Source: an uncultured Alphaproteobacteria bacterium
GTDB taxonomy: Bacteria > Pseudomonadota > Alphaproteobacteria > Rhizobiales > Rhodomicrobiaceae
Length of the DNA stretch: 40,000 nt
Direction: 5' to 3'
NCBI GenBank assembly: GCA_963749875.1
Contig: CAVVOX010000002.1
Coordinates: 1,615,372 to 1,655,371 of the forward strand
In this document: in pieces, positions 20,074 to 39,274 of the stretch
Layout of the letters: every line of letters starts with the position of its first letter
Position numbering within the stretch: the stretch's first letter is position 1
Position numbers and translations under genes: made by a program
The notes under the pieces: generated by a model
Told to the model about the DNA's origin: nothing
The model's database searches: none
What the model saw: the letters and a program-made list of their open reading frames with translations, nothing else

Positions 20074-20150
20074 GGGCCTGTAGCTCAACTGGTTAGAGCC
20101 GACGGCTCATAACCGTCTGGTTGCAGGTTCGAGTCCTGCCGGGCCCACCA
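20074..20150 (+). tRNA. tRNA with anticodon CAT (elongator tRNA-Met, or tRNA-Ile2 if lysidine-modified)
   Basis: Hand-folded cloverleaf: acceptor GGGCCTG/CGGGCCC, D arm GCTC..GAGC, anticodon arm GACGG-CTCATAA-CCGTC, T arm GCAGG-TTCGAGT-CCTGC, and an encoded CCA. Confidence 0.9.
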
Positions 20151-20458: not shown

Positions 20459-21803
20459 TTGGCAATCGCAATCGGATATTTCATGATCAGCTTCGCCGCG
20501 GCAAGGTCCGGCTGCGAGGGAGCACTGATGGATACAAGATCTGAAGATCGCAGCGCCTTTGATGGCAGCCCCGCTTTAGCCGCCGAGTCAGTTGCGTCCG
20601 ACGCTCAGGACACGACTCAGAAATATCTGCTGTTCGCTGCAGCATTCGCATTCTTCTGGCTCACCGCCTCCATTATTAGCGACAGCGGGATGCGTGAGCT
20701 CTTCGGCGCCGACTCCCCGCAATATGAACAGCTCGCAAACGGCGAGGTTCTCGATCGCATAACGCGCTTTCATCCCGTTACCGTCGCGATCTCCCTTATC
20801 TGGGTGAAAACGATCGGCGCAATTTTCCCCAAGATGTGGCCTTCCGATATTCTGACAGCTCTGTTTGCCTTGATCGGAGCCATTGGCGTTTGGGCGGCAT
20901 CATCGGCATTTTCACTGCTGGTCCCAAAGCGCCTCGTCCCGATTTGCGGGACGATCTACGCTTGCTCTCTCGGTGTCTGGTACTTCTCAAGTATCCCTGA
21001 AGTCCAAGATCGTCAGTGGAACGCTGGTTGCGATCTATATCGCGCTCTATTTGCGGCTGAGACTCCATTGGACTCTTCGGGGGGCTGCGTGGCTGACACT
21101 CGTCCTTTTCATCGCGTGCCTGAATGAAATCGTCAGCGTCTTTCTGGTCGCGATCCCTGCCGCGGACATTTTGTTGAGACGCGGCATCGATTTTCGCGCA
21201 GCGCGCTGGATCGCCATCCACGCCCTGGCCTCCGCATTACCTGCATTGTTCGTTCTGGAAATTATCGTAGGAAGGCTCATACTTTCCGAAGTAACGGATC
21301 CCGCAAGATCCTCGCTTTTCACCATGTTCTGGTATTATATCGAGCGCGCGGAATATACATGGTATAATATTTATAACTTCATTTTGAATTGGTTCGTATT
21401 CAGCATTGCGGCGCCAATGCCATTGCCGCAATATGTCGATCAGCCCATTTCTTATTTTGAACCCGCGCTTATAAACTATTTCAGAAGCACAGCTTCATCC
21501 GCCGTCATTTTCTTAATGGCGGCTATGATCGTAACGCCACTTCTCCCCATGTGGCGCAATTCTTTTCGGGATTTTCTACCGATTTGCCTTGCTGTTATCG
21601 CATATAGTTTCGTTCGGGGCTTGTTCTTCTTCCTTTATATTCCCGGCGAAAGCTTGATTTTTACGCCCTCGGTCGTCTTAGCCCATCTGATTTTCATCCT
21701 GATCCTATTTGCGAATTCGCGTTTTCCGGCGAAGGCAACAGTCCTTGTCCTGTTTGCCGTCGCGCTTTTCCTTACAAATCTCAACTTTATGATCGCTTCC
21801 TGA
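20459..21803 (+). pseudogene. polytopic membrane protein (GT-C/polymerase-like shape) split over two reading frames near 20995-21010
   Basis: ORF 20459..21127 is membrane-like up to ...GVWYFSSIPE and then turns polar. ORF 20883..21803 starts with an Arg/His/Ser-rich stretch and becomes membrane-like from ...KSKIVSGTLVAIYIALYL. The two overlap by 245 nt in different frames. The 3' half is AT-rich. Confidence 0.55.
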
Positions 21804-21839
21804 CATGACCCGGCTGTCCGCCGGATCTTTCAGCCGATC

Positions 21840-22400
21840 CTAAAAGCCTGTCCAAAGCGTATATTGACCGACCGCGCCATGGGCATTGAGAGCGATAGCG
21901 CGGCAAGGCGCGAACTCCGTTAACTGGGCAGAGATGATCTGCACGCCATATCCGTTCAGAGCCTCGCCGGCCCGTTCGCTCAGCTTCACTCTGAAGCCTT
22001 CACGGTCGCCTTGGATTTCTTCCAGCGTATGCTTGCTGACCTCGTCATATATGGCGCCCTGAGATCGCTCCATGACATCTGATGGAAGATCTGCAATGTG
22101 GGCGAGCGCTTGCACGACGTCGTTAATATAGTATGTCACGAGCGCGCCAACCAAGACGGTCTTGTGGTCGCTGGTCATAACGACCTTGGACTGTATCAAC
22201 TGCGTTTGCCGCACCGTCATAATCTTCTTGTAGGTTGTCGCCACGGGCCAGTACCAATGCAGTCCCGGCTTCCATTCTCGTATGTGGCGTCCCCTTACAA
22301 ATGCGACAGCGCCATCCGTGGCGGGAATGATTACCAGCCAGGGGAGAAGCCTGAGGAGAGCCTGAGCGATCTCTCCAATCCATCCTAAAGCCCTGTCCAA
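21840..22400 (-). CDS. short SPFH (stomatin/prohibitin/band-7) domain protein with N-terminal membrane anchor
   Basis: 186 aa. The pattern GAVAFVRGRHIREWKPGLHWYWP...VMTSDHKTVLVGALVTYYINDVVQA...HTLEEI...NGYGVQIISAQLTEF follows the SPFH core (G-V-FG-..PGLH..P / T.D...V.V...V.Y.I.D). Confidence 0.6.
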   Translation of the reverse strand: MDRALGWIGEIAQALLRLLPWLVIIPATDGAVAFVRGRHIREWKPGLHWYWPVATTYKKIMTVRQTQLIQSKVVMTSDHKTVLVGALVTYYINDVVQALAHIADLPSDVMERSQGAIYDEVSKHTLEEIQGDREGFRVKLSERAGEALNGYGVQIISAQLTEFAPCRAIALNAHGAVGQYTLWTGF

Positions 22401-22519
22401 AGGTCACCTCCAGATTTTAGCGATCATCTTGCGGAAGATATCGCTCATGCAGAATTGGTAGGAACGCGTTCGGCCCGCGCCTGAGATCATGAGGAATTGA
22501 GCAGAGAGCCGACTAGCCC

Positions 22520-22640
22520 AACGTGCGTCCAAGCATGTCCCCGCGAAGGTGGGGATGGACGCGGGAACAGTTGCGCTCGTCTTTTGATATAGATCAACTT
22601 AACCTCGTTCAAATGATTCCACTTGAACGAGGGTTGATCT
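22520..22640 (+). repeat. 121-bp structured intergenic repeat, copy 1
   Basis: Aligns without gaps to 39154-39274 with 13 mismatches (hand count). Contains two hairpins: GCGTCC..TCCCCGC-GAAG-GTGGGGA..GGACGC and GATCAAC..CCTCGTTCAA..TTGAACGAGG-GTTGATC. Confidence 0.85.
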
Positions 22641-22683
22641 GGATCCTGTCGACGGTTCTCACTCTGCGTCAAGGCTTTTCTGT

Positions 22684-23961
22684 TCAGTCGAGGGCCGTAT
22701 TTGCGACCATATTGGTGACGACTCCGATGCCGTACCCATCCAGTCTCATCTTGCCGCTGAACTTTTCTCGAACGATCTTTCCGGAGCTCTCGGCGTCCAG
22801 CCGCAGCAGCTCCTGGCAATCGTTGAGCCTCTCGTCCCAGTCCGACGCCTCCAACTCCAGACGTTCCGGCGTGGTGTTGACGAAAACACCGCTTAGCTGA
22901 CCGCTATCGTCCCAGGAAACAATCGAATCCACGGCAACATCGTTGGGGTAATGATCGGGGAAACAGACCCAGTCGCCATATCGCACATGCTGGGCAAAGA
23001 GCTGCTTGCCCAGGCAAGCCGGGGTCGCCTCGCCATCCATGCTTATCAGACCATACGCATCATCGTTGGCGGTCGCGGTCCATCGCATCTCCAGGTCTGC
23101 GCCACCTCGGATGAGGTGAATAAGGGCCGAGGCGTAATATGCCGCGCCAAAAGCCGTCTGGTTCAACCCACCGACAAATTGGTGGTCGTGATTGACTACC
23201 GTGTTCAGCTCGCCGCAGATATTCAGAATATCGCGACCGGCCAGAATCTTGGCGACCGCCCGGGCCCTGGCCTCGTATTGGGGCGTCTGGGCCATCAACA
23301 AGGTCTGGTATGACGCACCTGCCGGCGCATCCGGATCCCCCCTAAGATCAAATCCCAAGGTCGCACTTGGCACCACCGGGCGCCAATCCCCATAGTGATG
23401 CCAGGAGACGAACCGGACGAGCGACTCATCGACCTCGTTGACCAGTCTGGAAACCCAGTCCATCCAATAGGGCTGGAACCCGCAGAGCGCCGGCCCGCCG
23501 ATCCGGGCCTTCTGCCCGTTGAGATAGGGCTCGATCAGGCGGTGGACAGCTTGCGCGACCTCCTCATAGATGCGGCGATATTGCGGGAAAGTGAGGTTGC
23601 CCCCCACCTGGTAATTGTTCGGCTCGTTCCACACACACCAATACCAGTCCCGGACGGCCTCGCCGCCCCATTGCTCGATACACCCCCAAACGACGTCGGC
23701 GCAGCGGGCGACGAAAGTCCGCAGGCTACGCGGATCATCATGAGGCGGATGATATTTGGCAAAGGTTACCATCGGCACCGCGCCCATATCCAGGACACCC
23801 TGCACGTAAGCGGCAAACAGCGCCCATTCGGTCACTGGATCGGGCACGGGCTTGTCGAAGACAAAGATCCGCACGATTTGCGTGCCCATGAGACGATGAT
23901 GGTGCCCGATCCGCTCGCGGTGCTCACCCGAGCGACAAGTGCCACCAGCCGTCGACTTCAT
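22684..23961 (-). CDS. clan GH-A-like glycoside hydrolase (GH39/GH5-like), no signal peptide
   Basis: 425 aa. Has CVWNEPN (acid/base Glu motif), VSWHHYGDW, and ICGELN as a candidate nucleophile. The N-terminus is uncertain because an ATG-initiated 37-codon frame at 24037..23924 may be the real 5' end. Confidence 0.6.
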   Translation of the reverse strand: MKSTAGGTCRSGEHRERIGHHHRLMGTQIVRIFVFDKPVPDPVTEWALFAAYVQGVLDMGAVPMVTFAKYHPPHDDPRSLRTFVARCADVVWGCIEQWGGEAVRDWYWCVWNEPNNYQVGGNLTFPQYRRIYEEVAQAVHRLIEPYLNGQKARIGGPALCGFQPYWMDWVSRLVNEVDESLVRFVSWHHYGDWRPVVPSATLGFDLRGDPDAPAGASYQTLLMAQTPQYEARARAVAKILAGRDILNICGELNTVVNHDHQFVGGLNQTAFGAAYYASALIHLIRGGADLEMRWTATANDDAYGLISMDGEATPACLGKQLFAQHVRYGDWVCFPDHYPNDVAVDSIVSWDDSGQLSGVFVNTTPERLELEASDWDERLNDCQELLRLDAESSGKIVREKFSGKMRLDGYGIGVVTNMVANTALD

Positions 23962-24063
23962 TGAAACCGTAGCGCAACTGCATCCGTTGCGGGGCCAGCC
24001 GGGAACGGCAAGGCCAGTCTTTGTTGTCCAGCATCATCGAACTTTTGTCATTGGCTGAGAGAG

Positions 24064-25119
24064 TCATGATTGGATAATATCGATCAGCTGCCGCAGCCGG
24101 GGCTGCGGGCTATGATGTCTGCGGAACTCGTCCCTAATCCCACGCACGATCTCGGCATAGTGTTCGGGCCGCCGAAGCACATCCTGGATCTTTTCCGGCT
24201 GGCCATCACCTGACAGGACCAATTGATCGGCGGCAGCATCACCGTAGATACTGCGAACATAATCAGCATCCAGAACGAACAGAGGTACGGTGCCGGCCGC
24301 GGGCGTCTCGAAGGTCCGGCATGTCACCATCCCCAGACGTTCGAATAACGGCCGGTACACCACGGGGTTCATCGCGCCGCGACTCATCGTGGCAATAACT
24401 TCTGAGAACGGGATCGGCGGAATCGCCTCGACCGCCAGCTTTTTCATATAGTCGTAGTCCACATGGTAGACGTCTTCCATCCGCATTGGCGTTGCCCAGT
24501 CCGGCAGCGCGTCCCATCCATATCCGAACAGGCCGATCCGGCCGACCTCATCGCGTATCGGCTCAACCGCGCGCAAGACCTGCTCCATCCCGTGCCAGCG
24601 GAATTTCGAATGCCCGACATAGACGATATCGAAATCCTTGGCCGAGAAGTCCAGAGGGGCCTCCCAAGCCGGGTCGTACAGGTGAAAAAGGAAGGTGCCC
24701 ACATTCGGGCGCAGAGGATGCGGCGTAGGCTGATAGATCTTGTCCGCCACCGCATCGCAGAAGTCCACATAGGTCCGGCTCTCTTCCGCGTTTCGGTGAT
24801 TGAAGTCGCCGTGGATCTCCACCATGTCGTTATAACGGCCATCGCAGTCGATCACGACGCGCCGCTCGCGTGGCACGGACGATATCAGCCGGAGCCAATC
24901 CATCTGGTCTCCGGACAGCAAATCCGTCGTCCACTCGAAGATGAACACCAGCGCATCGGCGCCGCTGAGATCGATGGAGTAGTCCAACGGGATCTTGGGA
25001 TTTGGCCACCCATAGACTGTGGCCTCGTGCCCGAGTTCCTTGGCGGCGCGAGCGTAGCCTTGAAGGTCCAGCTCGCTTCCCTGGTTCTCATAGGCATAAT
25101 AGACAAAGACAATTTTCAT
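24064..25119 (-). CDS. CgeB-like (Glyco_trans_1_2-like) GT-B glycosyltransferase, paralog 1
   Basis: Starts MKIVFVYY. Has motifs DCDGRYN, YVGHSKFRW, RPLFERLGMVTCRTFETPAAGTVPLF and RRPEHY. Alignable along its length with the two upstream genes. Confidence 0.6.
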   Translation of the reverse strand: MKIVFVYYAYENQGSELDLQGYARAAKELGHEATVYGWPNPKIPLDYSIDLSGADALVFIFEWTTDLLSGDQMDWLRLISSVPRERRVVIDCDGRYNDMVEIHGDFNHRNAEESRTYVDFCDAVADKIYQPTPHPLRPNVGTFLFHLYDPAWEAPLDFSAKDFDIVYVGHSKFRWHGMEQVLRAVEPIRDEVGRIGLFGYGWDALPDWATPMRMEDVYHVDYDYMKKLAVEAIPPIPFSEVIATMSRGAMNPVVYRPLFERLGMVTCRTFETPAAGTVPLFVLDADYVRSIYGDAAADQLVLSGDGQPEKIQDVLRRPEHYAEIVRGIRDEFRRHHSPQPRLRQLIDIIQS

Positions 25120-25148
25120 GCCTGGGGCTTTCAAACTGCGCAGATGGA

Positions 25149-26238
25149 TTAATCGGAGAGCGCGGTGACGAGTTCCTCGACGCGGCGGCGATAGGAGTGA
25201 TGAACCGCCATGTAGCGCCGCGCGTCTTCGACGATCTCCCGGTAGTGGTCGGGCCGTTGCAGTGCGTCCATGATCTTTTCGGCAACGCGGCCTGGAAGCG
25301 TCAGCTCCCGTCCCGCCGGACCGTAAACAGCTTCAGCCAAATCATCCTCAAGCATCAAAAGAGGAATCGTATCGGCGCAGAATTCCTCGAAATAGCGCAG
25401 CGTAAGGTGTCTTACATGCTGCAGAAATGGGCGCTGTGTAAAGATGTTGATACGCCCAGTGCTCATCGTGCGGATAACATCGGTGAAAGGCACTGGCGGC
25501 TTTATCTGGATGCGCAGCTTACGGAATTTCTCGGCCTCGACGCGGAAGGCTGGTTCGAGATCGAGCTCTGCCGCCCACTCCGGCACGGCGTCCCACCACA
25601 AGCCAAGAAATGCGATCTCGCCGATATCGCCGCAGAATCTCCTCGAAGGCCGGTAAGAGCTGCTCGGACACCTCTTTCCAGCGCCACCAATTGTGCCCGA
25701 CATGGAGGATATCATATTGCTTGGGCGGGGCGGTTTCGGGGTCGATCACAAGAGCAGGGTCAAACCCAAAGATCGGAAGCGTCGTCACCTTCGGATCATC
25801 GGAGGGCACGATTGTCGGCTTGATGATTCGGTCGGAGAGTGCGTCGTAAAACTCCAGCCATTCCGCGCGTTCGGCCTCGTCATAGTGGCTGCGGTCATAG
25901 CCATCGACAATGGTGAACGGATTGTACCGGCCATCGGCGTCCAGAATGAACCGATGCTCGCGCGGAATGGTCCCAAGCAATGCGACTTCCTGCAGCCGGT
26001 TGACCCGATGCAGTTTCGACTCCAAGAGATAGATCACACGGTCGAAAGCGCTGGGGTCTGTCGAAAAACGGGCCACCTGCTTGTCCGGCGGCAGATACAA
26101 GCCATCGACCACGAGCGGCTGAGAAGGACCGTGGAACGCGATCTCATGACCCAGCTCCGCCCCGACGCGGATATAGTTGGCGATGGCATGCGTGTTACCC
26201 GCATTGCCCCGGTACTCGATCACGAACAGGATCTTCAT
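25149..26238 (-). pseudogene. CgeB-like glycosyltransferase, paralog 2, disrupted by a 1-nt frameshift near 25635
   Basis: ORF 25519..26352 (true ATG 26238, MKILFVIEY) and ORF 25149..25715 join as ...LLPAFEEI/CGDIGEIAFLGLWWDAVPEW. This aligns without gaps to VLRAVEPIRDEVGRIGLFGYGWDALPDW of paralog 1 if one C at about 25635 is skipped. Confidence 0.7.
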
Positions 26239-27353
26239 TGCGGCCCTCGAGCCGTCATGCGCCTGTCGAGCAGACCAAAGAGTTCTTGGAACCGCCGGTC
26301 GAACGAGTGATTGACGGCGAGATGCGAGCGGGTCTGCAGGACGGCGTCCCAATAGGTCTCGGGATGTTCGAGCGCATCGGTGAGATGTGCGGCCAGATCA
26401 TCGCCAGGGACAAGCTTGAGAGCGGCGGGACCGTACACGGCTTCGACAAAGTCGCGGGGCAGCATCAGGACCGGCAGGCTGTCCGCATAAAATGTCTCGA
26501 AAGTCCGCACTGTCACCATACCGAGATGCCTAAAGAGCGGGCGGTGAAAGACGGGAGCGAATTTGGCCTTACTAAGGTGTCCGGCCGCGTTATCATGACT
26601 GCAGCCATCCCAGATGTCGACGTCCAAATCGGCAAGAAATGCCGGGTCCGTATCAATACCCATGATGCCGAGTTCAATGGCCCAATCCGGCCGCGCGCCC
26701 CAATCCCAGCCGATCAGGCAGGCCCGGCCAACCGTCTCGCGGACGGGCGCATAGCGTTCGAGAAAACTCCGTATCTGGTCCCAGCGCTGCCAGTTGCTGC
26801 CGACATACATAACGCCATAAGGCTTTTCGGCGGGCCCGGCTTTGCTCCATGCGGCGGCGGCTTCCCTGGCGCTGTCATAATTTCTTACAACGGCACTCGG
26901 GTCATAGCCGTGGAAGAGGAATGATTCCACATCCGGCCGAATGGGCTTAAGCGCCGGCTGCAATATTGTGTTGGATACGGAGCGGAAAGCCTCTTCCCAT
27001 TCCCAGCCAAGATGTCCATCCAGCTTCTCGAGATGGTTGAAGTCATGCTCCAGCCGGATCGTATCGTTGTAACGTCCCCATAGGTCCACAACAACGCGCT
27101 TGTCACGCGGGACACTATCGAGCAATCGCGCGAGCTCGGGCATATCGGGCAAATCGGAAGGCACCTGGATCACGAACAGCGCCAGATCCACATCGCTGAT
27201 ATCTGTCGTGAAAGTCATGGAGGGCAGCTCTGGATCGGGCTCCCCGTAGACGGCGATGTCGTAGCCCAGTTCCCGGCCGGCGCTCACATATTTGTCGATG
27301 GTGGATACGCTCCGGACCCAAGGCTCCACCGAGGTCACAAGCAGGATCTTCAA
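26235..27353 (-). CDS. CgeB-like glycosyltransferase, paralog 3
   Basis: TTG start at 27353 (GGAGG RBS) overlaps the stop of the epimerase gene (TTGA). Its stop overlaps the paralog 2 ATG (ATGA). Motifs VDLWGRYN, YVGSNWQRW, RPLFRHLGMVTVRTFETFYADSLPVL and EHPETY. Confidence 0.6.
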   Translation of the reverse strand: MKILLVTSVEPWVRSVSTIDKYVSAGRELGYDIAVYGEPDPELPSMTFTTDISDVDLALFVIQVPSDLPDMPELARLLDSVPRDKRVVVDLWGRYNDTIRLEHDFNHLEKLDGHLGWEWEEAFRSVSNTILQPALKPIRPDVESFLFHGYDPSAVVRNYDSAREAAAAWSKAGPAEKPYGVMYVGSNWQRWDQIRSFLERYAPVRETVGRACLIGWDWGARPDWAIELGIMGIDTDPAFLADLDVDIWDGCSHDNAAGHLSKAKFAPVFHRPLFRHLGMVTVRTFETFYADSLPVLMLPRDFVEAVYGPAALKLVPGDDLAAHLTDALEHPETYWDAVLQTRSHLAVNHSFDRRFQELFGLLDRRMTARGPQ

Positions 27354-28339
27354 CGTCCGCCTCCACTCGCCACCGCAGTCATGGGCTCGCGGGCAAACAC
27401 GTCGCCACCCTGCCGGATCGTTTCTTTAAGGCCGTCCTCGAAACTTGTCTGCGGCGCCCACCCGAGGACCGCTTGTGCCTGGCTGATATCGGCCTGCACT
27501 CTGCGCTGTTCGCCTGGACGCGCCGCCGCCCGAATGATCTCATATTCGCCGGGCTTATAGCCGTATGCCGCAATCGCCCGTTCAGCCAGTTGGTTGATGG
27601 AAAGGGAATGGCCACTCCCCAGATTGAACACGCCGCCGGTTGCTTCGGGCGTGTTCAACGCGCGGACCCAACCCTCGACGATATCGTCGATAAAGACGAA
27701 GTCGCGCGTTTGCTCGCCGTCACCGAAGATCGTGATGGGCTCGCCGCGTTGGAGCTTGCCGAGAAAGATGCCGAGCACCCCCTGATACGGATTGTCCCAG
27801 GCCTGCCCGGGGCCAAAAACGCTGAACATCCGCAGCGATGTTACACGAAATGGGAAGTCGACATCAGGCCGCACCGCCGTGGCATGGACATAGCGCTCAG
27901 CCGCATGCTTCGTGATGCCATAATAAGAGTCCGGCCGGCACGGCTCCAACTCCGGCGTCGGGACCGTCTGGCAATCGCCATAGATGGTCATCGAACTCGC
28001 ATAGATCAGCTGAGGAACTTTGTATTTCAGGCAGAGCTGGAGAACGTTGAGCGTGCCTTCGACATTCGTCCGCAAATCTGCGGCCGGGTTCTCAAATGAT
28101 CGAATGATCGAAACCTGACCGGCAATATGGCAGACGGCGTCGAGCCCCTCGGCGAAAACCGGTTCTATCTGTGGTATCTGGGTAACATCACCGCGAATAT
28201 ATGCCGCTTGCGGGGGAACGTTCTCTCTTTTGCCATTGTACTCATTGTCTACGACCGAGACGGAATGGCCGTCGGTCAGCAATCGCCGGGTTAGATGAGA
28301 CCCGATAAACCCGGCCCCACCCGTTATAAGTATTCTCAT
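27350..28339 (-). CDS. NAD-dependent nucleotide-sugar epimerase/dehydratase (GalE/UDP-sugar 4-epimerase-like)
   Basis: 329 aa with GGAGFIGSH, a catalytic YGITK (YxxxK) and SSMTIYG. First gene of the minus-strand glycosyltransferase operon. Confidence 0.85.
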   Translation of the reverse strand: MRILITGGAGFIGSHLTRRLLTDGHSVSVVDNEYNGKRENVPPQAAYIRGDVTQIPQIEPVFAEGLDAVCHIAGQVSIIRSFENPAADLRTNVEGTLNVLQLCLKYKVPQLIYASSMTIYGDCQTVPTPELEPCRPDSYYGITKHAAERYVHATAVRPDVDFPFRVTSLRMFSVFGPGQAWDNPYQGVLGIFLGKLQRGEPITIFGDGEQTRDFVFIDDIVEGWVRALNTPEATGGVFNLGSGHSLSINQLAERAIAAYGYKPGEYEIIRAAARPGEQRRVQADISQAQAVLGWAPQTSFEDGLKETIRQGGDVFAREPMTAVASGGGR

Positions 28340-28606
28340 TCAGCCGGTTCCTTTGCCAGTCGAATTCTCGAAAGCTGTCGCTTCAGCGATTGGGGGGCGG
28401 ACGCATGCGGTGCGAAGTCTATTGCCACAGCAACCATGAAACGTCTATGAATAATTGAATTCAAAAAGAGCGCGGATTGGCAACCAAGAAATTGTAACGC
28501 GATTAGTCACTTCGCCTACAAGAAATCAATTTAGGGTTGCGTTAAAGTTTAGGGCTCAACTTTCAAAATAGTCTAGAGCGATGGGCGATGGTAGTCATTT
28601 CTGACC

Positions 28607-29758
28607 ATGGAGAAATATGTGCCGAATAAACGTGTACTGATTACCGGGGGAGCCGGTTTTATCGGTTGCAATGCCGCCCGTTATTTCGGAATGCGGAACT
28701 GGAGCGTCACCGTCCTTGATAATCTTTCCAGACAAGGGACGGACAAAAATCTCCAATGGCTGAACGAAGGCACGAGCTTTGACTTCGAGCATGTCGACAT
28801 TCGAAATCGCCCGGCCATCGATCGCGTTTTTTCCGGGGGCCGGTTCGATGCGGTGCTTCATTTGGCTGCCCAGGTTGCCGTGACGACCTCGGTCACGGAT
28901 CCGGGCACCGACTTTGCCGTGAACGCATTCGGCACATTCAATATCCTCGACGCCATGCGGCTTCATTGCCCGGAAGCGGTGCTGATCTTCGCCTCGACGA
29001 ACAAGGTCTACGGCAAGATCGCCGGCGCCACCTCCGAGCTCAGCGGCGACCATTATGCTTACAGCAACCGGCCGCACGGCATTGGCGAAAGTGAACCGCT
29101 CGATTTCCTTTCGCCCTATGGGTGCTCGAAGGGGGCGGCCGATCAATATGTCCTGGATTTCGCCCGAATCTATCAGATCCCGGCGACATCGTTCCGCCAG
29201 TCATGCATCTACGGCCCGCGTCAATTCGGCGTCGAGGATCAGGGCTGGGTTGCCTGGTTCGTCATTGCCTCGCTGCTCGGACGGGACATCACGATATTCG
29301 GCGACGGCAAACAGGTCCGCGACGTTCTTCATGTCGATGATCTCGTGCGCGCTTATGAAGCGGCCATTCTTGCACCGGAAAAGGTGACCGCCCAGGCGTT
29401 CAATATCGGAGGCGGCCCGCGTCAGGTCATGTCGCTCTTGGATCTGATCGGCTATTTGGAGGAAGCGCTGGGTCACAAAATTCCCTTGAAATGGGATAAT
29501 TGGCGCCCCGGCGATCAGCAAGTGTTCATCAGCGATATCCGAAAATTAGAAAAGGTTTTGAACTGGAGACCGGAGATCGACGTCAAAACCGGTATCGCGC
29601 AACTGATAGAGTGGGTCGATCGGAACCGCGCCGCCATTCAGACAATCGGGAACACGTTACAGTCGGCCCCGGTGCAGGCTGCAAACGGACCTAATCCGGC
29701 GATTGACGGCATGCCGACAGCTCCTCTTTTTACCTCTCGTCTGGAGCACCATGACTGA
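28607..29758 (+). CDS. extended SDR nucleotide-sugar epimerase, CDP-paratose 2-epimerase-like
   Basis: 383 aa with [27 protein letters not shown] and EDQGWVAWF, which is characteristic of the tyvelose/paratose epimerase subgroup. Its stop overlaps the next gene's start by 8 nt. Confidence 0.75.
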
Positions 29759-30797
29759 TCGAAAATCTGTACTTGTCACGGGGGGGGCTGGATTTTTAGG
29801 CTCGCACCTTTGTGAACGTCTCCTGTCCGATGGCCATGATGTCCTTTGCATCGACAATTTCTTCACTGGCCGGAAGCAGAACATTGAGCATCTGATCCAC
29901 AATCCGCGGTTCGAGCTGATCCGGCACGATGTGACGTTTCCGCTCTATGTCGAGGTTGATCAGATCTACAATCTCGCCTGTCCGGCCTCGCCGATCCACT
30001 ATCAGCATGATCCCGTACAGACGACCAAGACGAGTGTCATTGGCGCGATCAATATGCTGGGACTGGCAAAGCGGCTCAAATGCCGGGTCTTCCAGGCCTC
30101 CACCTCCGAGGTTTACGGCGATCCGACGGCTCATCCGCAAACCGAGGCCTATTGGGGCAATGTCAATCCGATCGGCCCGCGTTCCTGCTACGATGAAGGC
30201 AAGCGCTGCGCCGAGACCCTGTTTTTCGACTATTACCGGCAGCATCGGCTCGAAATCAAGGTTGCACGGATCTTCAATACCTACGGTCCGCACATGCATC
30301 CGAATGACGGCCGCGTCGTGTCGAATTTCATTGTCCAGGCCTTACAGAATGAACCCATAACCATCTATGGCGATGGCAACCAAACGCGGTCATTCTGCTA
30401 TGTCAGCGACATGATCGAGGGCTTCATACGATTGATGAGCAGTCCCGCGGACCTTACCGGGCCGATGAACCTTGGCAATCCGAACGAGTTCACAATCAAT
30501 CAGCTCGCCGATCTGATTATCGAGATCACAGGATCCAAGTCGAAACTCATTCACCTGACATTGCCTCAGGACGACCCGAGACAGCGTCAGCCCGATATTA
30601 CCAGTGCTACGCAGCATCTCGGTTGGACGCCGAGCGTCTTGCTTCGCGAAGGGCTGACGCAGACGATCGAGTATTTCGACAAGGTGCTTTCGACGAAAGC
30701 CTCGGTGCATCATACCGTTCGAAACGCGGCGAGTATCGCGCAGTTTCGGCCCCTCGCCGGAGCGCAAGCCGCCAGAATGAGTCCGGGACAAGGCTAA
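29751..30797 (+). CDS. UDP-glucuronate decarboxylase (UDP-xylose synthase)
   Basis: The inner ATG at 29751 gives [62 protein letters not shown] and YDEGKRCAE are textbook UXS motifs. Has a C-terminal extension of about 30 aa. Confidence 0.9.
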
Positions 30798-31187
30798 TCC
30801 CAAACGCAGTCGTGAAGGAGGAACCAGGCAGTAGGCGGCAAGCCGCGTCGTAAGCCTTTATCGTGGGGCCGCTGGCGGAGCCCATCGGCTTTGGCAGCGC
30901 GATGCCGCCCATCGCTTTCGGGATGTCACCGGCAGGGCAGTGCGCTTGATAGAAAGTGCTGCCTGCCGCCAATGGCTCGTCTCGGCCTGCATTGGAGACC
31001 GTGACATTTCACCGGACAAATCGTTGAACAGCTAAACAAAACCGATTGCATCCCAAGATTTTTCGCGACGCATTTCCGTTCAAAGGACCTCATAGCTCAC
31101 ACTCGATAAGCCCAAATTTCACTTCGATAAAACTTCGCAATCAGAGGCAACTGTGCAGGCGTCAGTATCTTAGTTCAAGGACGTGAA

Positions 31188-32453
31188 ATGTCTTCGTTGT
31201 GGGCTCGGTTAAAAACCTTCGGGATTTATGTGCTGGTTCTCGTCTCAACGATCGTAGCCCTGGACACTATTCTGTTTTTTAGCCTCGATAATGAAATTAA
31301 TTCTGACTTCCCGGGCTACAGGGAAGGTTTTTACGTCGAAGAACATATCGGCAAAGGCTACCCACTTTATTACTTTGAAAAGCATCCCGAACGTGGCTTC
31401 GACATAAAACCAACATCGACGCCGCGAACAGATCAAATTCACGAAATGACCGATGACTATTCGTATCCAGTATGGTCGAATAAACTTGGATGTTTCGATA
31501 CACCCGTCGACAAGCCGAAGTCTCCGTTCTGGTATATGGCGGGTGATAGCATCATTTGGGGGCACGCCAAGTTCGAAACTCTGATGGGAACACGCCTGGA
31601 GAAGGCATTGGGCATTGAAATACTACAATGCGGTGTCACCCATACGGGACAGCGACATCAGTTCTCCAAGTTCCTGGACATTACGAAGAAGCTTGGTCAA
31701 TGGCCGGACCTCGTCCTCGTCTTTTACTCACCGACCGATACGGCGAATGACTATCTCTATCCCCATACGACTGTCGTGAACGGCGGCTTGGCGGACACGA
31801 AGAAGCTCACTCGCGAAAACGACATCGTCACGCTCGACGACGGCTGGTACAAAAGATTTATTGAGGATCACGATCATTTTTCCATGTCGCGTTTCCTCAT
31901 GACGTTCTCTATGACGGCTCAAATATTCAATGCCGGACTTCACAAAATACGGCATTGGATACCTTGGTCGAAACAGTATATCGGCACGCTCGGAGTTGAA
32001 CCGGGGCTACCGTGGTATGACAAGTATTTTCTTTACAAAGGACAACGGGTTTACGACCTCCATAGAATGACCATATACCAAACTCAAAACGGACGGATGA
32101 AATATGAGAATTATAAATTTGCGAACAACAACAAAGAAATAATTAGAGAGTGGCGCGACCATGCCATTAAAAATAATTATAAGCTTGTTTTCGTCCTTAT
32201 GCTTCCCGGTCCATCCTGGTTTATCGATGCAGAAAACAATAGGAATGATTTTTATAAGGAACTAAGAGAATATCTAGACAATATAGGTGTGAAATACTTT
32301 GATATGGTCGATGAAGTGACAAAACGTGATATTGAAATAGATGATCTAATGTGGGAAACAGACATCCACATGTCTGAATATGGCAACAAGGTCGTGGCCA
32401 ACATCTTGCTCGAATTGTTAGGCAAGAAATCATATGCTGAGCAGAAACAATAA
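31188..32453 (+). CDS. membrane-anchored SGNH/GDSL-like hydrolase or polysaccharide O-acyltransferase-like protein, AT-rich
   Basis: 421 aa. Has an N-terminal TM (FGIYVLVLVSTIVALDTILFF), a block-I-like YMAGDSIIWGH and a C-terminal ETDIHMSEYGN (Asp/His pair). AGGA RBS. Hand-counted 60-nt lines give 20/60 and 23/60 G+C. Confidence 0.5.
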   Translation: MSSLWARLKTFGIYVLVLVSTIVALDTILFFSLDNEINSDFPGYREGFYVEEHIGKGYPLYYFEKHPERGFDIKPTSTPRTDQIHEMTDDYSYPVWSNKLGCFDTPVDKPKSPFWYMAGDSIIWGHAKFETLMGTRLEKALGIEILQCGVTHTGQRHQFSKFLDITKKLGQWPDLVLVFYSPTDTANDYLYPHTTVVNGGLADTKKLTRENDIVTLDDGWYKRFIEDHDHFSMSRFLMTFSMTAQIFNAGLHKIRHWIPWSKQYIGTLGVEPGLPWYDKYFLYKGQRVYDLHRMTIYQTQNGRMKYENYKFANNNKEIIREWRDHAIKNNYKLVFVLMLPGPSWFIDAENNRNDFYKELREYLDNIGVKYFDMVDEVTKRDIEIDDLMWETDIHMSEYGNKVVANILLELLGKKSYAEQKQ

Positions 32454-35329: not shown

Positions 35330-36308
35330 CTATTTGCCGACCGCCTTACGCGCTTCGGCAATCATATCGGTAAGCTTTAATTCCGCATAGACAGGCTCGA
35401 CCGCCTTGCGGAAAGGCGTGGTATCGATCCTGTGAACCTTCACACCTTTTGACTCGATCTCCGCAAAGATTTCGTCGGCCTGCTCCACATTGGCCTTGAG
35501 GACCCCGGCGCCGCCTTTGTTCGAACTCCTCAACCACGATTTTGCGCAGATCGTCCGGCAGCGCGTTCAGCCATTTGGCGCTGACCAGGAGACCGCTCAT
35601 CAGATAGATATGCTCGGTCACGGTCACGTCGCTGACGACCTCATAGAGCTTGGCGCCGCGAATGGCGGAAGGCTGGGCTTCGGCGCCGTCGATCACGCCG
35701 AGCTGGAGCGACGGGTAGACCTCCGCCCAAGCGAGCGGCGTCGGCACGGCGCCCATCGCGGCGATAGTCTTGATCCAGAGCGGCTGACCGATGGTCCGCA
35801 CACGCACGCCTTTCAGATCGGCCGGTTTCGAGATCGGCTTCTTGGTCAGCATGTTGCGGGCGCCCTGATACCAGTTGAAGGACAGGAGCGTCAGGCCGGT
35901 CTTTTTCTCCAGCTCCTTGTTCCATTTGTCGTATGTCGGCGTCTCCACCAGCTTGACCAGCTCGTCGACGCTGTCGAAGACGTAAGGCGCGACGAGAACA
36001 TTGAACTCCGGCACATAGACCGAGACGCGCGAGGCCTCAACGAACGTGCCGACATTGGAGCCCGCCTGGGCCTGGTCCATCATGTCCTGCGTATCGCCGA
36101 GCTGCGAACTGGGAAAAATCTGCACCTCGATTTTGCCGCCGGACCGTTCCTCGACGGCCTTCTTCATCTTTTCCGCTCCCACGACGAGCGGGTCGCCGGG
36201 CGCCAGGACCGTGCCCAGCCGCAGCGTATAATCGGCGGCGAATGGCTGGGCCGGCGCGACGGCCAGACCGAGGAATATCGCTCCGAAAAGAAGTCCTGTC
36301 TTACGCAT
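35330..36308 (-). pseudogene. TRAP substrate-binding protein (DctP family) with a frame disruption near 35505-35530
   Basis: ATG 36308 (GGGAGGA RBS) gives a signal peptide MRKTGLLFGAIFLGLAVAPAQPFAA. The DctP-like sequence runs to ...LRKIVVEEFE and then turns Arg/Gly/Cys-rich. The natural C-terminus (NKGGAGVLKANVEQADEIFAEIESKGVKVHRIDTTPF...) continues in the frame of ORF 35330..35533. Confidence 0.65.
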
Positions 36309-36421
36309 TTGAATATCCTCCCTGGTTTCCTTCCTGGCCGCTCCCACGCCGAGGCTGCGGCTTTCCCAATTCGAGGCTGGGCATCCGGCGATGCATTCCT
36401 CTTATTGACGCCCCCATTTGG

Positions 36422-37432: not shown

Positions 37433-39150
37433 AGAAGACACCAGAACAGCTCCGCAGCCACCGCTGGTTCGGCGTTGAGGATCTGCGCGCTTTCGGCCAC
37501 CGCTCGCGCATGCTGCAGATGGGCTACCGGCATGAGGAGTTCGTCGGCAAGCCGATCGTCGGCATCATCAACACATGGAGCGGCATTAATCCGTGCCATG
37601 CACATTTCGCCGAGCGCGTCGAGGATGTGAAGCGCGGCGTCATTCGGGCCGGCGGATTTCCGATCGAGTTGCCCGCGCTCTCGCTGGCCGAGCCGTTCGT
37701 CAAGCCGACGACCATGCTTTACCGCAATCTCCTGGCGATCGAGACCGAGGAACTGCTGCGGTCCCATCCGATCGACGGCGCGGTTCTGATGGGCGGCTGC
37801 GACAAGACCACGCCGGCGCTTCTCATGGGTGCGATCTCGATGGATCTGCCCGCCATTTTCGTGCCCGCGGGCCCGATGCTGCGCGGCAATTGGAAAGGCA
37901 GAATATTGGGCAGCGGCTCCGATGTCTGGAAATATTGGGCCGAAAAGGAAGCCGGGAACATAACCGATGCCGAGTGGCGCGAGATGGAGGCCGGGATCGC
38001 CCGGTCCTACGGCCATTGCATGACGATGGGCACGGCGTCCACACTGACGGCGATCGCCGAAACGCTCGGCTTCACCCTGCCCGGCGCCAGCTCGATCCCC
38101 GCATCCGACGCCGGCCACATGCGGATGGCCTCAACGAGCGGCGAAACGGCGGTCGAGATGATCTGGGCGGACCGCAAGCCGTCCGCCTTCCTCACCCGGC
38201 AATCCTTCGAAAACGCGCTCGTCGCACAGATGGGGATCGGCGGCTCGACCAACGCCATCATCCATCTGGTCGCCCTGGCACGCCGCACGGGCGTCCCGCT
38301 CGATCTTGCCGATGTGGACCGCATCTCCCGGCAGATGCCGGTGACGGTCAATCTCCAGCCCTCCGGCCAATATCTGATGGAGGATTTCTATTATGCTGGC
38401 GGGTTGACCGGCTTTCTCGGTACCATTCGCGACAAGCTTCACCTCGATGCCGCAACGGTCAACGGGCGCACGATCGGCGAGAACGTCGCAGGCGCGGAAG
38501 TCTATAATGACGACGTCATCCGGCCGCTCGACAGGGCGATCTACGGGGCCGGCGCCACGGCCGTGCTGTTCGGCAATCTCGCGCCGAATGGCTGCGTCAT
38601 GAAGCCCTGCGCCGCCGAGCCGCGCCTCTTGAAGCATGAAGGCCCCGCCCTCGTCTTCCGCGACTATAATGAGATGGCGGCGATGATCGACCGCGACGAT
38701 CTCGACGTGACCCCCGACACCGTGCTCGTCCTGCAGAATGCCGGTCCCGTCGGCGCGCCGGGCATGCCGGAATGGGGCATGCTGCCGCTGCCGAAGAAGC
38801 TCTTGCAGCAGGGCGTTCGCGATATGCTGCGCGTCTCCGATGCCCGCATGAGCGGCACGAGCTATGGGGCCTGCGTTCTCCACGTTTCGCCGGAAAGCCA
38901 TATTGGCGGGCCGCTCGCCGCGGTCAGAACCGGCGATGTGATTTCGGTCGATGTGGAGAACCGGCGGATCGATGTGCGGCTTTCGGACGAGGAGATTGCG
39001 GCGCGCCTCGCCGAGTGGCGACCGCCCAGCCGCGACTACCCCCGCGGCTACAATCAGATGTTTGCCCGCCATATCGGTCAGGCTCATGAAGGCTGCGATT
39101 TCGACTTTCTGAGCGGGGCCGGCGGCATCCCGGAACCGGAGATTCACTAG
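37429..39150 (+). CDS. IlvD/Edd family sugar-acid dehydratase (arabinonate/xylonate/gluconate dehydratase-like)
   Basis: 573 aa. LRSHRWFG...GKPIVGIINTWSGINPCHAHF, GGCDKTTPALLMG and SDARMSGTSYG are typical of the IlvD/Edd family, sugar-acid branch. Confidence 0.85.
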   Translation: MKKTPEQLRSHRWFGVEDLRAFGHRSRMLQMGYRHEEFVGKPIVGIINTWSGINPCHAHFAERVEDVKRGVIRAGGFPIELPALSLAEPFVKPTTMLYRNLLAIETEELLRSHPIDGAVLMGGCDKTTPALLMGAISMDLPAIFVPAGPMLRGNWKGRILGSGSDVWKYWAEKEAGNITDAEWREMEAGIARSYGHCMTMGTASTLTAIAETLGFTLPGASSIPASDAGHMRMASTSGETAVEMIWADRKPSAFLTRQSFENALVAQMGIGGSTNAIIHLVALARRTGVPLDLADVDRISRQMPVTVNLQPSGQYLMEDFYYAGGLTGFLGTIRDKLHLDAATVNGRTIGENVAGAEVYNDDVIRPLDRAIYGAGATAVLFGNLAPNGCVMKPCAAEPRLLKHEGPALVFRDYNEMAAMIDRDDLDVTPDTVLVLQNAGPVGAPGMPEWGMLPLPKKLLQQGVRDMLRVSDARMSGTSYGACVLHVSPESHIGGPLAAVRTGDVISVDVENRRIDVRLSDEEIAARLAEWRPPSRDYPRGYNQMFARHIGQAHEGCDFDFLSGAGGIPEPEIH

Positions 39151-39153
39151 CGT

Positions 39154-39274
39154 AACGCGCGTCCAAGCATGTCCCCGCGAAGGCGGGGATGGACGCGGGA
39201 ACAGTTGCGCTAACTTTTTGAAATGGATCAACTTGACCTCGTCCAAGTGATGCTACTTGAACGAGGGTTGATCT
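39154..39274 (+). repeat. 121-bp structured intergenic repeat, copy 2
   Basis: Same orientation as 22520-22640. Starts 4 nt after the dehydratase stop, between convergent genes. Hairpin 1 has perfect inner stem TCCCCGC-GAAG-GCGGGGA. Confidence 0.85.

Follow-up and report, generated by a model that had tools for sequence, protein, structure and literature searches.

The stretch of DNA considered here, 40,000 nt of contig CAVVOX010000002.1 from an uncultured alphaproteobacterium of the Rhodomicrobiaceae (the window), carries at positions 20459-32453 (the locus) a group of genes for sugar-nucleotide enzymes, glycosyltransferases (GTs) and a glycoside hydrolase (GH). Within the locus lies a gene cassette that is a glycan biosynthesis cluster, and thus of a known kind, but whose composition is undescribed and which combines a new GT family with familiar enzyme superfamilies. 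In our estimate the chances are about even (a probability near 0.5) that this cassette, an intact set of genes, builds a decorated, xylose-containing oligosaccharide stepwise in the cytoplasm, while genes elsewhere in the genome provide priming and export. The original prediction, made from the letters of the sequence, had implied a one-off locus of 12 kb; what the window holds is instead one copy of a widespread cassette, so that the unit of interest is the segment of about 9 kb between 21840 and 30797 and not the full 12 kb.

Conservation of the cassette

The survey of related loci took one genome per species and comprised 79 loci, onto which the proteins of the window were mapped for the component counts (Table 1). 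The carriers are mostly Hyphomicrobiaceae and other Hyphomicrobiales (Hyphomicrobium, Filomicrobium, Rhodomicrobium, Devosia, Xanthobacteraceae), and further copies are found in Enhygromyxa, Paraliomyxa, a Myxococcaceae metagenome-assembled genome (MAG), Nitrospirae, Gemmatimonadota, Acidobacteriota, Rokubacteria and Planctomycetota, in all at least six phyla. The core cassette reads, in order, a TyvE-like short-chain dehydrogenase/reductase (SDR2), a GalE-like one (SDR1), three GT paralogs (GT3, GT2 and GT1), a GH39-like hydrolase and an SPFH protein. The order SDR1-GT3-GT2-GT1-GH39 is kept in 66 of the 67 loci that have both ends, 58 of which carry three GTs; non-alphaproteobacterial lineages have four to seven GTs and at times two hydrolases.

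The G+C content (GC) of the cassette tracks that of the host genome (0.48-0.70) and is on average 1.1 points below the flanks (54 loci), while the flanking genes vary by lineage. Of 60 loci scanned, 17 have a tRNA gene no more than 10 kb away, and these tRNAs represent 11 amino acids, so the position of the cassette varies between lineages. Taken together, the fixed order, the host-like GC and the differing flanks argue that the cassette is old, has been kept by selection and can change its position; it is not a core feature of any one site, nor has it been newly inserted. In the divergent intergenic regions between SDR2 and SDR1 no regulatory motif was common to more than 8 of 47, and a plasmid collection contained no relative of GT3.

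Some copies deserve mention in their own right. In a Hyphomicrobiaceae MAG two GT3-GT2-GT1-GH39 blocks stand in tandem (L017, 3837-15252) and have diverged, with 73-76% vs 51-59% identity to GT2 and GT1 of the window. The cassette also occurs in assemblies labelled Leptospira interrogans (L068) and Kocuria sp. (L071). The identities of L068 to the window fall within the Hyphomicrobiales range, which makes contamination of that assembly likely; L071 has six GTs, an ATP-binding cassette (ABC) exporter and a UDP-glucose dehydrogenase, like other non-alphaproteobacterial versions.

Intactness of the genes

The original prediction had read the membrane-protein gene as frame-split and had offered a decaying island as one of its options. 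The split is indeed present in the window, and two others, in GT2 and at the N-terminus of the hydrolase, had been overlooked. Over 17.25 kb the NCBI contig L001 matches the window at 99.88% identity, with 17 substitutions, and relative to it the window has exactly four extra single bases, at 21000, 23930, 25634 and 35524. The first splits the membrane-protein gene, which is intact in L001. The second shortens the hydrolase, called as 401 aa on the 1.8-Mb source contig; when base 23930 is dropped the gene reads through to 460 aa, and the intact 460-aa form is also recorded on two JGI contigs. The third splits GT2 into open reading frames (ORFs) 25149-25715 and 25519-26352; GT2 is intact in L001, L002 and L003, and two Logan contigs lack the insertion. 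The fourth lies outside the locus, in the solute-binding DctP gene of a tripartite ATP-independent periplasmic (TRAP) transporter (35346-36347, minus strand). Since all four differences are insertions in coding sequence, one of them in this housekeeping gene, they point to assembly error, and assembly error or very recent change is the simplest explanation for them.

That the locus is a recently acquired, tRNA-linked island in decay, with genes in the course of inactivation, is very improbable: three frameshifts in the window, a GC below that of the flanks and the adjoining tRNA-Met speak for it, but the frameshifts are specific to this assembly and the same kind of insertion is found in the unrelated DctP gene, the corrected hydrolase differs from that of L001 in ten codons of which nine changes are synonymous and one nonsynonymous, and the cassette is strongly conserved across phyla. 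The decay reading was rejected on the assembly-specific insertions, the synonymous changes and the intact copies in other contigs. A classical tRNA-linked integrative island was likewise set aside, though the GC deviates, as no integrase was found among the genes scanned and no direct repeat of the tRNA 3' end (att-like) elsewhere in the locus. A comparison with sister sites, through a metagenome scan with the neighbouring GntR gene, returned one relevant contig of 2 kb, too short to define an empty site, in which nothing in the 700 nt upstream of GntR resembles the window.

As a separate observation, 12 of the 17 substitutions relative to L001 crowd together within 109 nt (window 23830-23938) in the 5' end of the hydrolase gene, a cluster that has the look of a short tract of recombination or of allelic origin and not of error or decay.

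The three GT-B paralogs

GT1, GT2 and GT3 had been described as CgeB-like and poorly characterised. The first label holds in part: PF13524 (cut-off 25 bits) is matched by GT1 (35.5 bits, E 1.1e-8) and by the C-terminal half of GT2 (30.2 bits, E 5e-7), whereas GT3 has no match in Pfam, NCBIfam or, by sequence, the PDB. None of the three matched an NCBIfam model or showed a sequence link to solved structures. The AF2 model of GT3 (pLDDT 76, pTM 0.81) has a GT-B fold, and Foldseek returned 142 PDB matches at E <= 0.001 with GT-B enzymes in the lead, the nearest solved folds being ManT, GlgM, T4 BGT, SenB, PimA, BshA and MshA, with GtfA and SpnP also among the neighbours. Over 139 sequences the paralogs share a core conserved at 90% or more (D90, N96, D104, N106, H107, G185, R190, W191, R271, F285, E286), comprising a D-x-N-H motif, a Gly/Arg-Trp element that opens the C-terminal domain, and R-x-F-E. 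The fold modelled for GT3, together with G185, R190, F285 and E286 kept in all paralogs, places the three among the GT-B enzymes, which have two Rossmann-like domains, a conserved Glu (R-x-F-E) and a Gly-rich loop that opens the C-terminal domain, and judging from the conserved residues none of them looks like a dead copy.

The second label is borne out. Of the 633 homologues of GT3 at 65-75% identity, all those with a name are called 'hypothetical protein', and the profile of the family matches only 338 of 1.84 billion cluster representatives, so that by sequence comparison the three paralogs form a small, new and sharply isolated GT-B family.

The most conserved motif of these enzymes, E-H-D-F-N-H-L-E-K, is invariant in GT3 orthologues (GT3 residues 96-120, window ~26994-27068, minus strand) and coincides with the lowest-confidence loop of the GT3 model, which may be mobile and serve acceptor binding or catalysis. 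One protein of 1044 aa (P0391) fuses a GT of this family to a GT2 domain (PF13704), where GT2 denotes, as for the GT2 enzymes of relatives below, the GT2 type and not the cassette paralog GT2. Beyond that domain a methyltransferase-like stretch and then a long C-terminal coiled coil can be seen by eye, an architecture that recalls the chain-terminating or length-measuring enzymes of ABC-transporter-dependent O-antigen pathways.

Sugar-nucleotide enzymes

Three extended SDRs, among them a clear UDP-xylose synthase (UXS), had been claimed for the locus, and all three are present. UXS matches human UXS1 structures at E 9e-131 over residues 3-319 and shares 66-76% identity with genes on plasmids that bear the annotation 'UDP-glucuronic acid decarboxylase family protein', similarities that make its assignment unambiguous. 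SDR1 matches PF01370 (E 4e-59) and, as its best PDB match, the UDP-glucose 4-epimerase of T. maritima (4zrm, E 7e-56); by eye it does not have the D-E pair that is typical of 4,6-dehydratases. SDR2 reaches E 2e-99 with TaTyvE (9rl0), which turns CDP-glucose into CDP-mannose (PMC13098431), and 8e-85 with 1orr. This close, full-length similarity makes SDR2 a probable TyvE-like 2-epimerase.

The GH39-like hydrolase and its SPFH partner

The hydrolase scores 31.9 bits against PF01229 (GH39; cut-off 26) and covers only positions 115-227 of the 472 of that profile. A profile of its own family, searched against the PDB, matches GH39 beta-xylosidases only (best E 9e-13, query ~76-231 covered), and PslG is not matched by it at E <= 0.01. 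The acid/base NEP motif (E148-P149-N150 region) and the nucleophile in C284-G285-E286 are invariant in alignments of 46 and 21 sequences that include other phyla, as expected of a retaining (beta/alpha)8 glycosidase of clan GH-A, in which the nucleophile Glu lies about 130 residues past the acid/base Glu. Neither a signal peptide nor a transmembrane (TM) segment is predicted for it, so that the earlier description of a signal-less GH-A-like enzyme proves apt; the protein is predicted to be cytoplasmic and has kept both clan GH-A catalytic glutamates. Nor was a TM segment or signal peptide found in the GTs or SDRs.

The SPFH protein matches PF01145 with 70.8 bits (cut-off 23.6, E 1.9e-19); at 186 aa it is far shorter than HflK/HflC and far under their equivalog cut-offs. 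In Alphaproteobacteria it is the last gene of the core cassette.

Priming, export and decoration

A scan of ORFs within the locus and on both sides of it found no priming transferase, Wzx/Wzy, Wza/Wzc, nearby ABC exporter or synthase, which for the window confirms the report of the original prediction that the locus has no recognisable genes for priming, polymerisation or export. In three loci of other phyla a half-transporter with ABC_membrane and ABC_tran domains directly follows the hydrolase (L065, L071 and, as two genes, L070), and its closest bacterial structures are MsbA lipid flippases (~1e-85). A related ABC gene lies a few kb from the cassette in Rhodomicrobium, and in alphaproteobacterial loci the SPFH gene occupies the position after the hydrolase in place of an exporter.

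Genes for product decoration are frequent among the relatives. A TylF O-methyltransferase (PF05711, E 1.5e-90) abuts the cassette in 44 of the 79 loci, including most alphaproteobacterial copies, and is absent from the window; class-I methyltransferases stand beside the cassette in Enhygromyxa, Nitrospirae and Myxococcaceae. Other neighbours in other phyla are GT2 enzymes, a sulfotransferase (Gemmatimonadota) and UDP-glucose dehydrogenase (Kocuria, Planctomycetota). Near the cassette of Nitrospirae (L063, 11707-13248) and Myxococcaceae (L070, 4287-5780) two related proteins, 44% identical, are encoded; they have no Pfam match and are predicted to have about four N-terminal TM helices and a large soluble C-terminal domain.

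The nearest candidate exporter, an ABC-2-type permease (PF01061; 39324-39950, minus strand), is encoded at the edge of the window, about 7 kb off, and lies past TRAP, metallo-beta-lactamase-fold and IlvD genes; its partner ATPase would fall outside the window, and there is no sign that the permease serves the cassette.

Accessory membrane and SGNH-like proteins

The first gene of the locus encodes a protein with about ten hydrophobic helices and no match in Pfam or NCBIfam. The AF2 model of a 92%-identical homologue (pLDDT 89) has as its top Foldseek PDB matches almost exclusively GT-C enzymes (ArnT, Pmt4, PglB, STT3, ALG9, Emb, AftB), and these matches are weak (E 2.5e-3 to 0.1, TM-score 0.35-0.57); a GT-C glycosyltransferase fold is accordingly a prediction from the model, and one that would imply chemistry on the periplasmic face. 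D62, in the first loop after the first TM helix, is invariant. No sequence link was found to the PDB or to the MptA/B-type GT-C proteins encoded beside SGNH homologues (below). The original prediction had been right that the protein is polytopic and had missed the GT-C-like predicted fold; neither an exporter nor a polymerase domain was found in it.

The last gene encodes a protein with one TM segment (residues 8-26). Its match to PF13472 (22.7 bits) stays below the cut-off of 32.9 and concerns the C-terminal part only; the motifs 'AGDSIIWGH' (block I GDS) and 'TDIHMSEYGN' (D-x-H) can be recognised by eye. The family comprises 58 proteins from Rhodomicrobium, Rhodomicrobiaceae and Parvibaculaceae, one distant member having PF16822 (ALGX) and another PF13472/PF00657. 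The SGNH-like protein is a lineage-specific add-on, and together with the membrane protein it is compositionally foreign and accessory to the cassette, not part of its core.

On three other contigs an SGNH homologue is flanked by a carbamoyltransferase on one side and by an MptA/B-family GT-C on the other (L083, 5980-11091; L084, 974-5950; L085, 730-5706), two of these contigs being Rhodomicrobiaceae. This conserved trio is a separate, also uncharacterised, periplasmic glycan-modification module.

Layout and composition of the locus

Table 1. Features of the locus and its boundary, with the occurrence of each component among the 79 surveyed loci.
Feature	Position in window	Strand	Description	Occurrence
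tRNA-Met (CAT)	20074-20150	+	ARAGORN and Rfam RF00005 (68 bits)	
Polytopic membrane protein	20528-21803	+	424 aa once intact; GT-C-like predicted fold	Homologue <=10 kb from cassette in 6/79
SPFH/Band-7 protein	21840-22400	-	186 aa; PF01145	60/79, directly downstream of hydrolase, 62-80% identity
Hairpin-bearing intergenic repeat	22515-22643		~130 nt; second copy at 39146-39274	
GH39-like hydrolase, clan GH-A-like	22684-24067	-	460 aa once intact	69/79
GT1	24064-25119	-	351 aa; GT-B paralog, PF13524	74/79
GT2	25149-26238	-	362 aa once intact; GT-B paralog, PF13524 on C-terminal half	76/79
GT3	26235-27353	-	372 aa; GT-B fold in AF2 model	78/79
SDR1, GalE-like extended SDR	27350-28339	-	329 aa; PF01370; opens minus-strand operon	77/79, always immediately before GT3
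SDR2, CDP-tyvelose 2-epimerase-like SDR	28619-29758	+	379 aa; divergent from SDR1	73/79
UXS (UDP-glucuronate decarboxylase / UDP-xylose synthase)	29751-30797	+	348 aa; human UXS1 match	Adjacent in 38/79
SGNH/AlgX-like protein	31188-32453	+	421 aa; AT-rich, N-terminal anchor	0/79; beside cassette only in window and L001
TylF O-methyltransferase				Adjacent in 44/79

All genes listed by the original prediction were found where it had placed them or close by, and its account of their chaining and of a patchy composition stood up as well. Start and stop codons overlap as TTGA between SDR1 and GT3 and as ATGA between GT3 and GT2 and between GT1 and the hydrolase, and SDR2 and UXS overlap by 8 nt. 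GC is 0.621 in the flanks, 0.574 in the cassette, 0.512 in the membrane-protein gene and 0.443 in the SGNH-like gene. The tRNA-Met gene, which ends 308 nt before the start of the locus, is the left boundary of the low-GC stretch; L001 terminates within it.

The gap of 283 nt between hydrolase and SPFH genes is unusually long because a copy of a repeat of about 130 nt lies there. The two copies in the window are direct and 89% identical over 129 nt (blastn), each has two inverted repeats able to form hairpins, and the element resembles a repetitive extragenic palindrome (REP) or a miniature inverted-repeat transposable element (MITE). Rfam matched no family other than the tRNA-Met, scans for promoters and terminators gave counts near those of shuffled sequence, and the PADLOC models of anti-phage defence matched none of the ten locus proteins.

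A proposed pathway and its alternatives

The analysis establishes which genes these are, that they are intact, co-oriented and translationally coupled, that their synteny and catalytic residues are conserved and that signal peptides are absent. In the scheme that we infer beyond this for the order of the reactions, the acceptor, the role of the SPFH protein and the fate of the product, UXS would convert UDP-glucuronate into UDP-xylose, SDR1 would interconvert 4-epimers and SDR2 would interconvert 2-epimers of the glucose/mannose type. GT3, GT2 and GT1, as ancient non-processive paralogs, would each add one defined sugar and, acting in sequence, would assemble a short hetero-oligosaccharide on an acceptor primed by the product of a gene outside the cassette. 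The hydrolase, as a putative retaining glycosidase, would trim, edit or recycle the product, probably at a beta-xyloside because its nearest relatives are beta-xylosidases, and the SPFH protein may tether or organise the enzymes at the inner membrane. In relatives the product could be further O-methylated by TylF or class-I methyltransferases, or sulfated, and in several non-alphaproteobacterial lineages the MsbA-type exporter encoded after the hydrolase would flip or export it; here export would take place in trans. The GT-C-like and SGNH/AlgX-like proteins, as later additions, might act on the glycan after its export, at the periplasmic face.

Several points weigh against this scheme. No acceptor, priming enzyme or exporter was found for it in the window, and most alphaproteobacterial loci are also without an adjacent exporter, which fits an intracellular product equally well. 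A cytoplasmic hydrolase is unusual for surface-glycan pathways. Since UXS is adjacent in only 38 of the 79 loci, xylose need not occur in every version of the product. For the GTs any donor or acceptor specificity is putative, and SDR1 falls below the GalE equivalog TIGR01179 (168.4 bits, cut-off 262.3) and has its closest annotated relative (60% identity) next to gmd in a canonical polysaccharide cluster of Azospirillum, so that its substrate is not fixed. The GT-C assignment of the membrane protein, finally, is a predicted fold with weak E-values and without sequence-level support.

Among the alternatives, a possible though doubtful one is an oligo- or polysaccharide that stays in the cytoplasm, where in a proteobacterium it would do the work of the polymethylated polysaccharides of mycobacteria: the GTs would elongate it, a methyltransferase would cap or decorate it and the hydrolase would cut the polymer into primers for re-elongation, and the product could act as a lipid or stress chaperone or as a compatible solute. 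This would agree with the signal-less state of all cassette enzymes and the conservation of the hydrolase, with the absence of an exporter near most alphaproteobacterial loci and with the sugar O-methyltransferase adjacent in more than half of the loci. In addition, GT3 finds its best structural match in ManT from the methylmannose polysaccharide (MMP) pathway, which is encoded by a compact four-gene cluster (ManT, MeT1, MeT3 and MmpH) of one GT, two methyltransferases and a cytoplasmic endo-hydrolase (PMC9883506). However, the ManT match reflects generic GT-B similarity (TM-score 0.58, 14% identity), MmpH is an (alpha/alpha)6 barrel unrelated to GH39 (PMC9883506), and the window copy has no methyltransferase. 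The MsbA-type exporters directly after the hydrolase in three other-phyla loci also count against it, as do the presumably periplasm-acting GT-C and SGNH genes that flank the cassette, a GT-C homologue lying near six further loci.

More tentatively still, and rather unlikely on present evidence, the cassette could be an intracellular or microdomain-tethered system for a decorated pentose/hexose oligosaccharide, in which the GT-B enzymes would form an assembly line, the GH39-like hydrolase would provide length control or recycling and the SPFH protein would be the scaffold.

It is unlikely that the cassette, instead of making a free glycan chain, attaches sugars to a small molecule, a lipid or a protein in the manner of natural products or glycolipids, with sequential GT-B action and TylF O-methylation, efflux by an ABCB-type transporter and removal of a protecting sugar by the hydrolase. 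The TylF family is annotated as macrocin (macrolide-sugar) O-methyltransferases (PF05711), the structural neighbours of GT3 include the small-molecule and lipid transferases SenB, BshA, MshA, PimA, GtfA and SpnP, the adjacent exporters are of the ABCB/MsbA lipid/drug type and not Wzm/Wzt, and an aglycone as acceptor would explain the missing polyprenyl-phosphate priming enzyme. Against this, aglycone genes (polyketide synthase, nonribosomal peptide synthetase, terpene or lipid) do not recur beside the cassette in the 79 loci, and neither a small conserved ORF nor a precursor peptide came to light, ORFs below 90 aa not having been clustered across loci; moreover, three to seven paralogous GTs in fixed order suggest a chain longer than typical small-molecule decoration.

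Hardly credible, by contrast, is a catabolic locus in which the hydrolase is a beta-xylosidase for using xylo-oligosaccharides taken up from outside and merely happens to adjoin the other genes: the nearest solved relatives of the hydrolase are GH39 beta-xylosidases and a TRAP transporter and a GntR regulator are encoded next door, but the ATGA overlap couples the hydrolase translationally to the GT genes, with which it is syntenic in 69 of the 79 loci whatever the flanks, the TRAP and GntR genes are not conserved as neighbours, neither xylose isomerase nor xylose kinase is present, and the similarity to xylosidases spans only about 120 residues.

Relation to known glycan systems

The literature searched contains no description of this gene combination, which agrees with the earlier view of the locus as undescribed, and nothing relevant on methyl sugars of Hyphomicrobium or on SPFH proteins with GT, GH or UXS. 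A canonical Wzx/Wzy, ABC-transporter or synthase pathway was rejected for want of such genes among the ORFs scanned. Membership of the mycobacterial MMP cluster was rejected too: the hydrolase is GH-A-like, there is no methyltransferase in the window and the similarity to ManT is at the level of fold only. The two systems are alike in being compact clusters with soluble GT-B enzymes and a signal-less dedicated hydrolase, without priming transferase or exporter, and methyltransferases occur in 44 of the 79 relatives of the cassette. They differ in that the MMP cluster has one GT and makes a homopolymer, whereas the cassette has three to seven paralogs and three sugar-nucleotide enzymes, and in that the MMP cluster has no SPFH partner, whereas some relatives of the cassette have adjacent exporters. 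The resemblance appears to be one of function.

The APS operon of Sinorhizobium resembles the cassette in being an accessory glycan operon of an alphaproteobacterium; its first genes are uxs1 and uxe, and it is AT-rich relative to the genome and cryptic. Reportedly, uxs1 encodes a UDP-xylose synthase and uxe an SDR 4-epimerase, the operon includes genes named as hydrolases, and APS depends on ApsS, an enzyme of the GT2 synthase type. APS is not known to have anything that corresponds to the GT-B triplet, the TyvE-like epimerase or the SPFH protein, and the locus in turn has no GT2-type enzyme or synthase.

In ABC-transporter-dependent O-antigens and capsules (E. coli O9a WbdA-D, Klebsiella WbbB) the chain is completed in the cytoplasm by soluble GT-B/GT-A enzymes, the priming WecA is encoded elsewhere, chain ends are methylated and no cytoplasmic GH is known. 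The fusion of a GT with a GT2 domain in P0391 recalls architectures of the WbdD/WbbB type; the exporters adjacent to the cassette are, however, of the ABCB/MsbA type and not Wzm/Wzt, and the locus has no transporter. PslG is a GH39 hydrolase of an exopolysaccharide operon, is presumed to process the product of that operon and acts outside the cytoplasm. The cassette shares with it a GH39-family hydrolase encoded inside a glycan biosynthesis operon, and differs in that its hydrolase has no signal peptide or anchor. With the CgeB/spore-crust system of Bacillus subtilis (PF13524 family; PMC13577073) the cassette has in common weak PF13524 matches in two of the three paralogs and a glycosylation without membrane-export step; its carriers are not spore formers, and partner genes of the sps type are missing.

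Biological meaning

A gene order that stays the same throughout Hyphomicrobiales and in five or more other phyla implies an important, undescribed glycan. The hydrolase of the cassette would be a rare example of a GH39-type enzyme working in the cytoplasm, and the pairing of glycan enzymes with a minimal SPFH protein is an unexplained partnership. For annotation, the window teaches that apparent pseudogenes on a long contig can be single-base assembly errors. If the cassette were to prove an intracellular or microdomain-tethered system, it would give Gram-negative bacteria an equivalent of the polymethylated polysaccharides of mycobacteria, widespread and previously unrecognised. Several carriers can be cultivated (Hyphomicrobium, Filomicrobium, Rhodomicrobium, Enhygromyxa and Paraliomyxa), and the product is directly testable in them.

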